DNA of 12,968 bases from Escherichia coli. Lineage in GTDB: Bacteria > Pseudomonadota > Gammaproteobacteria > Enterobacterales > Enterobacteriaceae. The translations under genes were made by a program, and so were the position numbers. Where the stretch lies: assembly GCF_003334355.1 (NCBI RefSeq), contig NZ_QOWP01000052.1; one strand, 5' to 3'. Shown piece by piece: positions 1 through 12,968 of this stretch. A model generated the notes under the pieces. The model had not been told where the DNA came from. It made no database searches and was given only the letters and a program-made list of their open reading frames with translations. Numbering within the stretch: position 1 is the first letter of the stretch; each line of letters begins with the position of its first letter.

Positions 1-125
1 TGCAGTTGCCATGTTTTACGGCAGTGAGAGCAGAGATAGCGCTGATGTCCGGCAGTGCTTTTGCCGTTACGCACCACGCCTTCAGTAGCGGAGCAGGAAG
101 GACATCTGATGGAAATGGAAGCCAC
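1..125 (-). CDS. insA: IS1 InsA (transposition repressor / N-terminal transposase part), 5' portion only; partial at window edge
   Basis: Minus-strand translation from GTG (complement of 123-125) gives [42 protein letters not shown], the InsA zinc-finger N-terminus (CxxC...CxxC), recalled from memory. The gene runs off the window start. Confidence 0.8.
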
Positions 126-180
126 GCAAGCACCTTAAAATCACCATCATACACTAAATCAGTAAGTTGGCAGCATTACC
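1..180 (-). mobile_element. IS1 insertion sequence, left (IRL/insA) end; element continues beyond the window start
   Basis: Reverse complement of 1-180 reads GGTAATGCTGCCAACTTACTGATTTAGTGTATGATGGTG... (the IS1 left inverted repeat) followed by the insA start and coding sequence. The terminal inverted repeat maps to 158-180, with the element boundary at 180/181. Confidence 0.9.
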
Positions 181-6265: not shown

Positions 6266-7936
6266 TCATTTTTTCGCTCTCACCGGCATCCCATTTGCCA
6301 CAAAATATCCCGTCGTGCTCCTCGGCAGCGCTTCCTGTCCACGAATCATATCCGCTATTTTCTCGCCAATCATAATTGTCGTGGCGTTCAAATTCCCGGT
6401 GATAATCTGCGGCATAATCGACGCATCCACCACACGCAGGCCTTCTAACCCGTGTACGCGGCCTTCGCCGTCAACCACGGACATCTCGTCGTAACCCATT
6501 TTGCAGGTACCGCACGGATGGAAGGCGGTTTCGGCGTGGTTACGCACGAACTCATCGAGCTGTTCATCCGTCTGGCATTCGACACCGGGGCTGATTTCGC
6601 GGCCACGATACTGATCCAGCGCGGGTTGATGCATGATCTCGCGGGTGATGCGAATTGCGTCGCGGAACTCCTGCCAGTCCTGCTCGTGCGACATGTAGTT
6701 AAACAGAATCGCCGGATGCTGGTGCGGGTCGCGGGATTTAATCCGCACATGCCCACGGCTTGGCGAGCGCATTGAGCCGACGTGGCACTGGAAACCGTGC
6801 TCTTTCACTGCATTCGAGCCGTTATAGTTAATCGCTACTGGCAGGAAATGGTACTGAATATTCGGCCACGCAAATTCCTCACGGCTGCGAATAAATCCAC
6901 CTGCTTCAAAGTGGTTGCTGGTTCCAACGCCAGTGCCGCCAAACAGCCACTCCGCACCGATTTTCGGCTGGTTCCACCACTGCAGGGCAGGGTAGAGGGA
7001 AACCGGTTCTTTGCACTCATATTGCAGATACATCTCCAGATGATCCTGAAGATTTTCGCCGACGCCGGGTAATTCATGCACCAGCGGAATATCAAACTCC
7101 GCCAGCAGTTCAGCGTTGCCGACGCCGGAGCGTTGCAGGATCTGCGGTGAGGCAATCGCGCCTGCACATAACAGCACTTCTTTGTTGGCCGTTGCGCGGG
7201 TTGGGATGGTGCTGTCGCCTTCCAGCCATTCGACGCCCACCGCGCGTTTGCCGTCAAAAATGATGTGATCGGTCATAGCGTGAGTACGAATGGTCAGGTT
7301 AGGACGCGATTTGGCCTGATCGAGATAGCCACGCGCGGTGCTGGCGCGACGGCCCTGCGGCGTGACGGTGCGATCCATCGGACCAAAACCTTCCTGCTGA
7401 TAACCGTTGAGATCGTCCGTGCGCGGGTAGCCCGCCTGCACGCCCGCTTCAATCATCGCTTCAAACAGCGGATTGACGCCGGGTTTGGAGGTAGTGACGC
7501 TCACCGGGCCATCACCGCCGTGATAGTCGTTTTCACCCATATCGCGAGTCTCGGCCTTGCGGTAGTAGGGCAGGCAGTCGAGGTAGCTCCAGTTCTCCAG
7601 ACCGGGTTCTTGCGCCCAGTTATCGAGATCCAGCGCATTGCCACGGATGTAGCACATGCCGTTGATCAGCGACGATCCACCCAGACCTTTACCGCGTCCG
7701 CACTCCATGCGGCGGTTATTCATAAACGGTTCAGGTTCCGTTTCATAGGCCCAGTTGTAGCGTTTACCCTGTAGCGGGAATGCCAGGGCAGCGGGCATCT
7801 GGGTGCGGAAGTCAAAGCGATAGTCCGGGCCGCCCGCTTCAAGCAGCAGCACGGAGGTATTCGGATCTTCAGTCAGACGGGTAGCGAGAACGTTGCCGGC
7901 TGAGCCGGCACCAATAATGATGTAGTCAAATTGCAA
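6266..7936 (-). CDS. betA: Choline dehydrogenase BetA (GMC oxidoreductase, FAD-dependent)
   Basis: The product starts (M)[20 protein letters not shown]..., with the FAD-binding GxGxxG motif. The start is a TTG (complement of 7934-7936) lying 5 nt downstream of a perfect AGGAGG. The track ORF to 7981 over-extends upstream into betB. Confidence 0.9.
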
Positions 7937-7949
7937 ATAAACCTCCTGG

Positions 7950-9422
7950 TTAGAATATGGACTGGAATTTAGCCATCTCAACCTGGATGGACTTCACCTG
8001 GGTGTAACTCTGGAGCGTCATCACGCCGTTCTCGCGACCAATGCCGGAGTGTTTGTAGCCGCCAACGGGCATCTCTGCCGGGGATTCGCCCCAGGTGTTG
8101 ATCCAGCAAATACCCGCTTCCAGCTGATGAATGACGCGATGCGCGCGGTTCAGGTCCGCTGTCACGATGCCCGCCGCCAGGCCGTAGTCGGTATCGTTAG
8201 CGCGGCGAATGACTTCGTCTTCCGACTCGTAGGTCAGAATGGACATCACTGGCCCGAAGATCTCTTCACGCACGATGGTCATATCGTCGCTGCAATCGGT
8301 GAACACTGTCGGTGCAACCCATGCGCCGTTATCGAAGCCATCGCCTTTCAGTACATCGCCGCCGCACAGTACGCGCGCGCCTTCCTCTTTGCCTTTGGCG
8401 ATATAGCGCAGCACGTTATCGCGATGCGGGAAGCTGACCAGCGGGCCGAAGTTAGTTTGCGGATCGAAAACGTCGCCCGCGCGAATGCGCTCAACGCGCG
8501 CCAGAATTTTCTGCTCAAATGCGGCTTTGCATTTCGCCGGAACGAAGACGCGGGTGCCATTGGTACACACCTGACCGGAGCTGAAGAAGTTTGCCATCAT
8601 GGCGATATCGGCGGCGAGATCGAGATCCGCATCATCGAAAACGATCAGCGGTGATTTACCGCCCAGTTCCATGGTCACTTCTTTCAGGGAAGAGGCCGCC
8701 GAGTTAGCCATCACTTTTTTGCCGCTGGCGACACCGCCGGTAAATGACACTTTGGCAATGCCCGGATGCTCGGTCAGATATTGCCCGGTCTCCGCGCCCA
8801 CGCCCGGCAACACGTTAAATACGCCGTCCGGCAGGCCCGCTTCGCTGTAAATTTCAGCCAGCTTTAACGCGGTAAGCGGGGTAACTTCGCTCGGTTTGAA
8901 AATCATTGCGTTGCCTGCCGTCAGCGCCGGGGCGGATTTCCACAGGGCAATCTGGATCGGGTAGTTCCATGCGCCAATCCCTGCCACTACGCCCAGCGGT
9001 TCGCGGCGGGTATACACAAAGGACGTTTCACGCAACGGGATCTGGCTGCCTTCCAGCGCCGGGATCAGCCCGGCGTAGTACTCCAGCACGTCCGCACCGG
9101 TAACGATATCGACGGTTGAGGTTTCCGAATATGCTTTTCCGGTGTCGAGGGTTTCCAGTTTTGCGAGTTCGTCATTGCGTTCACGCAGAATATCAACGGC
9201 CCGACGCAGAATACGCGAGCGCTCCATGGCGGTCATCGACGCCCAGATTTTTTGCCCCTGCTGGGCGCTTTTCACGGCGCGATCGACATCCTCGCGCCCG
9301 GCGGCCTGCACGGTCGCCAGCACGTTACCGTTGGCCGGGTTAATGGTCTCGAAGGTGCGACCGCTGGTGGCGGAGGTATAACCACCATGTATATAAAGCT
9401 GCTGTTCTGCCATTCGGGACAT
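7950..9422 (-). CDS. betB: Betaine-aldehyde dehydrogenase BetB (NAD-dependent ALDH family)
   Basis: 490-aa product [15 protein letters not shown]..., with the catalytic ALDH motifs (...ELGGKSP..., ...[13 protein letters not shown]...). The ATG (complement of 9420-9422) is preceded by a GAGGAG Shine-Dalgarno. The gene ends 13 bp upstream of the betA start. Confidence 0.9.
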
Positions 9423-9435
9423 CACGTCTCCTCGG

Positions 9436-10023
9436 TTAATCGGTGGGTAGATGCTGAGTGATAAAGTGGCGGGTCAGGGAATTAGCGCGGGTTTTATCCA
9501 GCGGTTTGCCGCTCAGAGCCGCGCGCAGCCATAATCCATCAATCAGCGCGGCCAGGCCGTAGCCCGCTTCCTGTGCCTGTTCGCGCGGCAATTCGCGACG
9601 AAACTCGCTCACCAGATTCGACAGCAAGCGGCGGCTGCTGACCTGCTGTAAACGATAGAGCATCGGCTGATGCATACTGCTGGCCCAGAACGCCAGCCAG
9701 GCTTTCATCGCCGCACTGCTCACCTGCGTTTCATCGAAGTTTCCGCCAACAATCGCCTGTAATCGCTGCTCTGCACTGCCCTGCGGAAGTGCATGTAATC
9801 GATTCAAAACCGCGTCACGCAGCTGACTGGTGATATCGCGCATGGTTGCTTCCAGCAGACCATTTTTGTCCCTGAAATAGTGGCTGATGATCCCCGTAGA
9901 AACGCCTGCACGGCGGGCGATCTGCGCGATCGTTGCATCGTGCATGCCCACTTCATTTATTGCTTCCAGTGTGGCGTCGATCAGTTGTCTGCGCCGGATC
10001 GACTGCATCCCCAATTTGGGCAT
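9436..10023 (-). CDS. betI: TetR-family choline-responsive repressor BetI
   Basis: 195-aa product [50 protein letters not shown]..., with an N-terminal TetR helix-turn-helix. The track ORF begins 6 codons upstream at 10041. The start at 10023 is preferred because it has a GGAG 7-10 nt upstream and matches the length I recall for this family. Confidence 0.85.
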
Positions 10024-10151
10024 TTTCGCCACTCCATTCATCAGCGGTGTTTATCTATTAAAGCGGTTATTGATTGGACGTTCAATATAAAATGTGTCTT
10101 AATTGTTACGAATTTGATTTTAAATAGTAACAATAACAGTGGGGATACTGG
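10024..10151. promoter_or_regulatory. Divergent betI / betT promoter-operator region, including an imperfect dyad TTATTGATTGGACGTTCAATATAA (10067-10090)
   Basis: A 128-bp AT-rich spacer lies between the divergent starts. It contains the half-sites ATTGGAC / GTTCAAT in inverted orientation, typical of a TetR-family operator. By established knowledge BetI binds a dyad in this interval. Confidence 0.6.
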
Positions 10152-12185
10152 ATGACAGACCTTTCACACAGCAGGGAAAAGGACAAAATCAATCCGGTGG
10201 TGTTTTACACCTCCGCCGGACTGATTTTGTTGTTTTCCCTGACAACGATCCTGTTTCGCGACTTCTCGGCCCTGTGGATTGGCCGCACGCTGGACTGGGT
10301 TTCTAAAACCTTCGGTTGGTACTATCTGCTGGCGGCAACGCTCTATATTGTCTTTGTGGTCTGTATCGCTTGTTCGCGTTTTGGTTCGGTGAAGCTCGGG
10401 CCAGAACAATCCAAACCGGAATTCAGCCTGCTGAGTTGGGCGGCGATGCTGTTTGCTGCCGGGATCGGTATCGACCTGATGTTCTTCTCCGTAGCCGAAC
10501 CGGTAACGCAGTATATGCAGCCGCCGGAAGGCGCGGGACAGACGATTGAGGCCGCGCGTCAGGCGATGGTCTGGACGCTGTTTCACTACGGCTTAACCGG
10601 CTGGTCGATGTATGCGCTGATGGGCATGGCGCTCGGATACTTTAGCTATCGTTATAATTTGCCGCTCACCATCCGCTCGGCGCTGTACCCGATCTTCGGT
10701 AAACGGATTAACGGGCCGATAGGTCACTCAGTGGATATTGCAGCGGTGATCGGCACTATCTTCGGTATTGCCACTACGCTCGGTATCGGTGTGGTGCAGC
10801 TTAACTATGGCTTGAGCGTACTGTTTGATATTCCCGATTCGATGGCGGCAAAAGCGGCACTGATCGCCTTGTCGGTGATCATCGCCACTATCTCGGTGAC
10901 ATCCGGTGTCGATAAGGGCATTCGCGTGTTATCGGAGCTTAATGTCGCGCTGGCGCTGGGATTGATCCTGTTCGTGTTGTTTATGGGCGACACTTCGTTC
11001 CTGCTTAATGCACTGGTGCTGAATGTTGGCGACTATGTGAATCGCTTTATGGGCATGACGCTCAACAGTTTTGCCTTCGACCGTCCAGTTGAGTGGATGA
11101 ATAACTGGACGCTCTTCTTCTGGGCATGGTGGGTGGCATGGTCGCCGTTTGTCGGCTTGTTCCTGGCGCGTATCTCGCGTGGGCGTACCATTCGCCAGTT
11201 CGTGCTGGGCACGTTGATTATTCCGTTTACCTTCACGCTGTTATGGCTCTCGGTGTTCGGCAATAGCGCGCTGTATGAAATCATCCACGGCGGCGCGGCA
11301 TTTGCCGAGGAAGCGATGGTCCATCCGGAGCGCGGCTTCTACAGCCTGCTGGCGCAGTATCCGGCGTTTACCTTTAGCGCCTCCGTCGCCACCATTACTG
11401 GCCTGCTGTTTTATGTGACCTCGGCGGACTCCGGGGCGCTGGTGCTGGGGAATTTCACCTCGCAGCTTAAAGATATCAACAGCGACGCCCCCGGCTGGCT
11501 GCGCGTCTTCTGGTCGGTGGCGATTGGCCTGCTGACGCTCGGCATGCTGATGACTAACGGGATATCCGCGCTGCAAAACACCACGGTGATTATGGGGCTG
11601 CCGTTCAGCTTTGTGATCTTCTTCGTGATGGCGGGGTTGTATAAATCTCTGAAGGTAGAAGATTACCGCCGTGAAAGTGCCAACCGCGATACCGCACCGC
11701 GACCGCTGGGGCTTCAGGATCGCCTGAGCTGGAAAAAACGTCTCTCGCGCCTGATGAATTATCCGGGCACGCGTTACACTAAACAGATGATGGAGACGGT
11801 CTGTTACCCGGCAATGGAAGAAGTGGCGCAGGAGTTGCGGTTGCGCGGCGCGTACGTGGAGCTAAAAAGCCTGCCACCGGAAGAGGGACAGCAGTTGGGT
11901 CATCTGGATTTGTTGGTGCATATGGGCGAAGAGCAAAACTTTGTCTATCAGATTTGGCCGCAGCAATATTCGGTGCCGGGCTTTACCTACCGCGCACGCA
12001 GCGGTAAATCGACCTACTACCGGCTGGAAACCTTCCTGTTAGAAGGCAGCCAGGGCAACGACCTGATGGACTACAGCAAAGAGCAGGTGATCACCGATAT
12101 TCTTGACCAGTACGAGCGGCACCTTAACTTTATTCATCTCCATCGTGAAGCGCCGGGCCATAGCGTGATGTTCCCGGACGCGTGA
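10152..12185 (+). CDS. betT: High-affinity choline transporter BetT (BCCT family)
   Basis: 677-aa ORF with multiple hydrophobic transmembrane segments and a tryptophan-rich BCCT signature region (...WTLFFWAWWVAWSPFVGLFLARISRGRTIRQF...). A long hydrophilic C-terminal tail follows. Confidence 0.92.
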   Translation: MTDLSHSREKDKINPVVFYTSAGLILLFSLTTILFRDFSALWIGRTLDWVSKTFGWYYLLAATLYIVFVVCIACSRFGSVKLGPEQSKPEFSLLSWAAMLFAAGIGIDLMFFSVAEPVTQYMQPPEGAGQTIEAARQAMVWTLFHYGLTGWSMYALMGMALGYFSYRYNLPLTIRSALYPIFGKRINGPIGHSVDIAAVIGTIFGIATTLGIGVVQLNYGLSVLFDIPDSMAAKAALIALSVIIATISVTSGVDKGIRVLSELNVALALGLILFVLFMGDTSFLLNALVLNVGDYVNRFMGMTLNSFAFDRPVEWMNNWTLFFWAWWVAWSPFVGLFLARISRGRTIRQFVLGTLIIPFTFTLLWLSVFGNSALYEIIHGGAAFAEEAMVHPERGFYSLLAQYPAFTFSASVATITGLLFYVTSADSGALVLGNFTSQLKDINSDAPGWLRVFWSVAIGLLTLGMLMTNGISALQNTTVIMGLPFSFVIFFVMAGLYKSLKVEDYRRESANRDTAPRPLGLQDRLSWKKRLSRLMNYPGTRYTKQMMETVCYPAMEEVAQELRLRGAYVELKSLPPEEGQQLGHLDLLVHMGEEQNFVYQIWPQQYSVPGFTYRARSGKSTYYRLETFLLEGSQGNDLMDYSKEQVITDILDQYERHLNFIHLHREAPGHSVMFPDA

Positions 12186-12891: not shown

Positions 12892-12968
12892 GGTAATGAC
12901 TCCAACTTATTGATAGTGTTTTATGTTCAGATAATGCCCGATGACTTTGTCATGCAGCTCCACCGATT
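12892..12968 (-). mobile_element. IS1 insertion sequence, right (IRR/insB 3') end; element continues beyond the window end
   Basis: 12892-12968 reads GGTAATGACTCCAACTTATTGATAGTGTTTTATGTTCAGATAATGCCCGATGACTTTGTCATGCAGCTCCACCGATT, which is the IS1 IRR read inward. It has the same orientation as the copy at 1-180. Confidence 0.9.
12907..12968 (-). CDS. insB: IS1 InsB (transposase) C-terminal end; partial at window edge
   Basis: Minus-strand translation gives ...SVELHDKVIGHYLNIKHYQ*, with the TAA stop (complement of 12907-12909) lying inside the terminal inverted repeat, as in IS1. Confidence 0.7.
   Translation of the reverse strand, partial: SVELHDKVIGHYLNIKHYQ

Follow-up and report, generated by a model that had tools for sequence, protein, structure and literature searches.

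A betI-betT spacer that lies between two insertion sequences raises a simple question: does such a locus keep the control region through which BetI would govern betT and its own operon, and which bases would the repressor read? We examined a stretch of Escherichia coli DNA 12,968 bp long (hereafter the window), for which the initial annotation had proposed an intact BetI operator of an expected, known type within an IS-flanked locus.

The bet region between two IS1 copies

Open reading frames, NCBIfam models and annotated matching genomes identify the window as the E. coli bet region, with rclR, ykgEFG, ykgH, betA, betB, betI and betT. The features that frame the analysis are as follows.

1-180, plus strand: 3' end of an IS1 copy that truncates rclA; it terminates in ...AGTAAGTTGGCAGCATTACC and is co-linear with the IS1 of strain PSS-12
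6266-7936, minus strand: betA (open reading frame listing, NCBIfam, annotated matching genomes)
7950-9425, minus strand: betB (open reading frame listing, NCBIfam, annotated matching genomes)
9436-10023, minus strand: betI, choline-sensing TetR-family repressor of 195 residues that heads betIBA (NCBIfam; named betI in matching genomes)
10152-12185, plus strand: betT, choline transporter of the BCCT type, 677 residues (NCBIfam NF007399)
12893-12968, plus strand: 5' end of a second IS1 copy; it opens with GGTAATGACTCCAACTTATTG and is 100% identical to the left end of the PSS-12 IS1

All four bet proteins scored above the curated NCBIfam cut-offs with end-to-end matches, and betI and betT are full length. 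BetI matched the equivalog model NF001978 (306.8 bits, cut-off 118) and TIGR03384 (268.2 bits, cut-off 201.3) from end to end, and BetT matched the subfamily model NF007399 at 1314.8 bits (cut-off 695). The mechanical betI reading frame begins at an upstream in-frame ATG at 10041, which would give 201 residues, but the 195-residue start at 10023 is favored: alignments begin at residue 1 for homologues and at residue 1-2 for the NCBIfam models, and a GGAG motif lies 8 nt ahead of the 10023 ATG. The betI ATG is the complement of 10021-10023 and the betT ATG lies at 10152, so the spacer runs from 10024 to 10151, as the initial annotation gave it. It is 128 bp long with 34% G+C.

The two IS1 ends share the same orientation and bracket 12.7 kb of DNA from rclA' to yahV. 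On the left, an rclA remnant of ~540 bp (176-718) is left; on the right, the IS1 5' end lies ~170 bp upstream of the pdeL start position. The sequence between the IS1 ends is 99.74% identical to K-12 MG1655, with 31 differing positions in 12.7 kb, and 99.93% identical to strain PSS-12. Of 5426 complete E. coli genomes, one, that of PSS-12, shares the left IS1/rclA junction, and none has the right junction as a single piece; several strains have an IS1 near the right junction, upstream of pdeL. We considered the IS1-bounded 12.7-kb segment as a mobile composite element and rejected this idea, because searches with the junctions and of plasmids gave no sign of movement. Plasmid records of the bet region were chiefly large plasmids of laboratory E. 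coli K-12 strains, probably F-primes, or mis-assigned chromosomes. The region of window positions 9400-10700 is present at 100% identity on seven such plasmids (214-242 kb) from laboratory K-12 cultures. We also observed betI-betT at 80-90% identity on native plasmids and megaplasmids of Pantoea, Erwinia, Klebsiella and Enterobacter.

The bet genes and their control region are thus intact between the IS1 ends at 1-180 and 12893-12968, in agreement with the initial proposal. For annotation of the window, this means that, although IS1 has inserted on either side, nothing is missing from the choline-to-glycine-betaine osmoprotection module, with its inventory of four genes, two promoters, the BetI operator and an ArcA site.

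The BetI site and the two divergent promoters

BetI is listed in the TetR family, and end-to-end equivalog matches show that this cognate regulator is encoded beside the operator. The candidate site is resolved at three lengths, none with an assigned strand.

10073-10086: core dyad ATTGGAC/GTTCAAT, centered between 10079 and 10080, 6/7 complementary
10070-10089: 20-bp experimental BetI binding site, the reverse complement of TATATTGAACGTCCAATCAA (Table S3, PMC8667592)
10067-10092: extended BetI operator with T-rich left flank, core dyad and A-rich right flank, delimited from an alignment of 77 spacers, 9/13 complementary

Inverted half-sites had been placed at 10067-10090. They do lie inside that range, but the core occupies exactly 10073-10086 and is not spread over it: the heptamers ATTGGAC (10073-10079) and GTTCAAT (10080-10086) abut one another. 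The interval 10067-10090, TTATTGATTGGACGTTCAATATAA, is better described as an extended 24-bp site. Complementarity is 6/7 in the core and 8/12 and 9/13 in the extended forms, and G10077 versus T10082 is the sole non-complementary pair in the core. The exact 14-mer occurs as a single copy in the window. As a bare palindrome the dyad is not beyond chance in an AT-rich spacer, since a gapless 6/7 palindrome was present in 24.6% of 5000 dinucleotide-preserving shuffles of the spacer; shuffles with a 6/7 palindrome that also reached at least 9/12 at the same center made up 4%. An inverted-repeat search of the spacer reported two other inverted repeats and passed over the BetI dyad, which contains no exact 6-nt seed. 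The case for the dyad must therefore rest on other evidence.

One line of such evidence is identity with a characterized site. The spacer with 100 bp on each side is 100% identical to K-12 MG1655 positions 329235-329562. Guharajan et al. (2021) list TATATTGAACGTCCAATCAA as the BetI binding sequence from PbetI (Table S3, PMC8667592), and the reverse complement of window positions 10070-10089 matches it at 20/20 bases. In the same work, this 20-mer was placed at +1 of an unrelated synthetic promoter and gave BetI-dependent fold changes down to ~0.001 (PMC8667592). The primer for the P_BetI gate promoter of the Cello circuits also carries the BetI operator (PMC7058928), and the operator part of that primer equals window positions 10069-10090 at 22/22 bases. 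Marionette strains use the P_BetI/BetI pair as a choline-inducible sensor, and RegulonDB has a BetI unit. Genomic SELEX yielded a single BetI site for E. coli, located in the betI-betT spacer; gel shift and SELEX both support BetI binding for the identical K-12 sequence. The assignment follows from the identity of the control region with that of K-12: judged by its bases, the window site is the K-12 BetI operator itself, already known and unaltered. The reading of the dyad as a BetI operator is accordingly borne out, with full-length betI and betT, a spacer that is K-12 base for base, and the published 20-bp site, the sole SELEX target, in place. As a discovery this is minor, because the textbook E. 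coli BetI operator is simply unchanged; the expectation of a known type of feature was correct.

We then placed the operator relative to the elements that would drive and translate the two divergent genes.

10032-10035, minus strand: likely betI ribosome-binding site GGAG, read from the sequence, 8 nt before the ATG
10049-10050, minus strand: approximate betIBA start, predicted 7 nt past the -10 hexamer and ~61 bp from the betT start
10057-10062, minus strand: putative betI -10 hexamer TTTAAT, judged from the sequence and separated by 17 bp from the -35 hexamer
10074-10079, plus strand: putative betT -35 hexamer TTGGAC, the left half-site, at -36 to -31 from 10110
10080-10085, minus strand: putative betI -35 hexamer TTGAAC, the right half-site, which mirrors the betT -35 and has a 17-bp spacer to TTTAAT
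10092-10134, plus strand: ArcA-P region with four direct repeats 11 bp apart, identical to the site in supplementary file 4 of PMC3798270
10095-10103, plus strand: putative extended -10 element of betT, TGtCTTAAT, read from the sequence, ending 7 nt before 10110
10110, plus strand: betT start, deduced from the ArcA-site numbering in PMC3798270
10141-10145, plus strand: GGGGA, judged from the sequence to be the likely ribosome-binding site of betT, 6 nt ahead of its ATG

Park et al. (2013) report the ArcA-P site ATGTGTCTTAATTGTTACGAATTTGATTTTAAATAGTAACAAT (ATGTGTC...AACAAT), which spans -18 to +25 when numbered by the betT start, and find that ArcA directly represses betIBA and betT under anaerobic conditions (PMC3798270). 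This site equals window positions 10092-10134, which puts the betT +1 at 10110. It lies next to the BetI dyad and over the betT -10 element and start. A generic promoter and terminator scan of 9950-10250 made no calls, and its silence on TTTAAT and CTTAAT is explained by a scan rule that demands A at position 2 of the -10 hexamer. The hexamers were assigned by hand from spacing and conservation, and checked against the start from the supplementary table. On the betI side, the succession of TTGAAC, 17 bp and TTTAAT predicts a betIBA start near 10049-10050, which fits the 61 bp that Lamark and colleagues are said to have placed between the betT and betIBA starts in 1996. With the betT start at 10110 and these hexamer spacings, the operator half-sites coincide with both -35 hexamers, and the center of the dyad falls midway between the two starts. 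Each divergent promoter thus has a -35 region that overlaps the dyad, on the betI side by way of a predicted start, and one BetI dimer would be able to control both promoters. In line with this, a 21-nt DNase I footprint of BetI over both -35 boxes, the same with choline, was reportedly obtained by Rkenes and colleagues in 1996.

We therefore hold with high confidence that 10070-10089, with its core at 10073-10086, is a single BetI operator centered between two back-to-back sigma-70 promoters. This view draws on the identity with the characterized K-12 site, the intact genes and the deep conservation of the dyad described below, together with what has been published on BetI binding, on the 20-mer as a repressing element, on the one SELEX target and on the ArcA site and its betT start; the hexamer assignments, the betI start and the mode of choline action enter it as predictions.

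Conservation of the dyad and alternative readings

Orthologous spacers were collected by a BetI protein scan with one genome per species. The best 80 loci came from other Enterobacterales, with one more from Stutzerimonas, and BetI identities were 63-94%. These best 80 loci include neither Escherichia nor Shigella, and the top match is 94% identical, though the species representative should give a match of 100%; the absence may stem from the collection or from the ranking. Upstream DNA is included in 76 loci, and in every one of them betT is the divergent neighbor. The 76 spacers are 126-435 bp long, with 47-176 bp between the dyad and the betI ATG.

Every one of the 76 spacers contains the 14-mer with at most one mismatch (none in 43, one in 33), a criterion that shuffled spacers satisfied in only 2/22,800 cases. 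Given this comparative evidence, the dyad is real and far beyond chance. An anchored alignment of 77 spacers gave 1.92 bits per column in the dyad versus 0.80 bits in other columns, and a mean of 1.82 bits over the extended 26 columns (10067-10092) versus 0.80 elsewhere. In an unanchored count, ACGTTCAA and CGTTCAAT (10078-10086) were the only 8-mers present in 76/76 spacers. The dyad is thus conserved in orthologous spacers well above the spacer background, and a 14-mer that is near-invariant across 76 species representatives is a comparative by-product that could refine BetI site models.

Across the 76 spacers, a single base of the 14-mer varies, the equivalent of 10077, which is G, A or C. 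E. coli has G, as do most relatives whose BetI is at least 74% identical. Every relative below 72% has A, which also occurs in a minority of closer ones, and two loci have C. An A at this position, as in Yersinia, Rahnella, Brenneria and others, yields the perfect palindrome ATTGAACGTTCAAT and also a better -35 match for betT. Loci with the perfect palindrome often have symmetric T-rich/A-rich flanks, with up to 26 bp of symmetry, and window positions 10067-10092 are a degenerate version of a palindrome of 26 bp, TTTTTGATTGAACGTTCAATCAAAAA, found in distant relatives. The perfect palindrome is thus an ancestral-looking form. Such symmetry (6/7 in the core, 9/13 in the extended site and perfect palindromes of 14 bp, and of up to 26 bp, in distant orthologous spacers) suits a homodimer with two helix-turn-helix domains.

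Other elements of the spacer are retained to differing degrees. TTAATTGT of the betT -10 region is kept in 51/76 orthologous spacers, an ATTAAA/ATTTAA block at the betI -10 is kept in every group of relatives, and the block CTCCATTCATCAG around the betI GGAG is conserved in close relatives.

Within E. coli, 5105 of 5182 records (98.5%) share every base of the 60-bp core centered on the dyad (10050-10109), compared with 1364/5177 (26%) for the adjoining 60 bp (10110-10169) and 3294/5097 (65%) for a 60-mer of betI coding sequence (9930-9989). Strain HS30-1 (NZ_CP029492.1) has an ISApl1 of 1070 bp, with a 2-bp duplication CT, inside the betI-betT spacer at the equivalent of window position 10055/10056. 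This lies between the putative betI -10 hexamer and start; the element keeps the BetI operator joined to betT and severs betIBA from its promoter.

We weighed these data against three other accounts of the dyad. The one that survives best, though we judge it very improbable, is that the dyad is a by-product of back-to-back, TTGACA-like -35 hexamers, and that BetI makes its contacts elsewhere or without sequence specificity. Abutting divergent -35 elements automatically form an inverted repeat, each half-site does offer a plausible -35 hexamer that is correctly spaced from its start, and the bare dyad is not significant. However, the 20-mer still gave BetI-dependent repression to ~0.001 when it stood at +1, where it is not a -35 element (PMC8667592), and BetI SELEX gave the spacer as the sole target. 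Positive EMSA or footprint results with BetI on the isolated 20-mer are also reported in the literature. Invariant bases extend outside the hexamers, to A10073, T10086 and the symmetric T-rich/A-rich flanks, and retention in 76/76 loci across families is far above what -35 hexamers normally show. Finally, a footprinted alphaproteobacterial BetI box has the same ATTG-N6-CAAT frame. -35 function, instead of BetI contacts, could nevertheless lie behind part of the conservation; sequence alone cannot separate the two roles.

The second account moves the true BetI operator to the inverted repeat ATTGTTAC-N17-GTAACAAT at 10102-10134 and makes the 10073-10086 dyad incidental. This repeat has perfect 8-nt arms, was reported by the same search that missed the BetI dyad, and covers the betT start, where repressors classically sit. 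Against this, it falls within 10092-10134, the four-repeat site published for ArcA-P (PMC3798270), it does not overlap the published BetI site sequence, and its right arm GTAACAAT is present in 0/76 orthologous spacers and its left arm ATTGTTAC in 15/76. Its symmetry seems peculiar to the Escherichia lineage and is perhaps incidental. We rejected the repeat as a BetI site on account of its place in the published ArcA site and its lack of conservation, and consider the chance that it is the true operator to be negligible. When 10098-10175 is folded as RNA, this repeat forms a hairpin, which was likewise discarded as a leader structure: its z score was only -1.87, and its left arm lies upstream of the 10110 start.

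The last account, a functionless chance palindrome in AT-rich intergenic DNA, is equally remote. An equally good 6/7 palindrome does arise in a quarter of shuffled spacers, but this account is already refuted by the comparative data (76/76 spacers versus 2/22,800 shuffles) and is further opposed by a core 98.5% identical across E. coli versus 26-65% for neighboring 60-mers, and by the experimental use of this sequence as a BetI site.

Choline response and comparison with known systems

If 10070-10089 is the single BetI operator, then a BetI dimer on the dyad would cover both -35 elements and repress betT and betIBA together, its own gene included. Choline imported by BetT would lift this repression, and ArcA-P over the betT -10 element and start would add anaerobic repression. 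The initial annotation expected choline-responsive control of betT. This agrees with behavior in vivo, but published work has the BetI-choline complex staying on operator DNA in vitro, with binding that is maintained or stimulated, a known trait of BetI itself and not something particular to the window. A gel-shift assay with choline is therefore not expected to show textbook TetR-type release, and induction would probably proceed by a change in the bound BetI complex. Choline-stimulated binding in vitro sits awkwardly with simple steric repression. A more speculative arrangement, which we think doubtful, is that BetI and sigma-70 region 4 alternately read shared bases, that BetI-choline stays in place and tolerates or aids RNA polymerase, and that G10077 tunes the balance between the betT and betI promoters together with an asymmetry in BetI binding. 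The data that bear on it are geometry and the pattern of conservation. If true, BetI would be a switch and not a simple block.

Compared with betO of K-12 (betT/betIBA), the window has the same spacer, the published 20-bp site, the gene order betA-betB-betI / betT and the adjacent ArcA site. The control regions do not differ at all, and the wider context differs in its IS1 copies, of which the left one lies 9.8 kb and the right one 2.7 kb from the operator.

A conserved betI site has been reported as common to Pseudomonas, E. coli and Ensifer, and the footprinted BetI1 box of Ruegeria pomeroyi is ATTGACG*CGTCAAT. The window operator resembles the betI boxes of R. pomeroyi, Pseudomonas aeruginosa and Ensifer meliloti in its 14-bp ATTG-N6-CAAT dyad on a -35 element, and those boxes are likewise bound by a choline-sensing TetR-family repressor. 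Unlike the Ruegeria box, its central six bases are GAC|GTT instead of ACG|CGT, and the E. coli dyad is imperfect at G10077. The E. coli site also differs from the betI boxes of other bacteria in that one site serves two promoters at once.

The arrangement resembles TetR/tetO, the type example of its family: the gene of a homodimeric helix-turn-helix repressor diverges from that of a transporter, and the repressor binds a palindrome in the spacer between them and regulates both genes, its own included. tetA/tetR have two tetO sites, whereas a single operator is present here, and the inducer releases TetR from its DNA, whereas BetI is reported to be still bound, or better bound, in the presence of choline.
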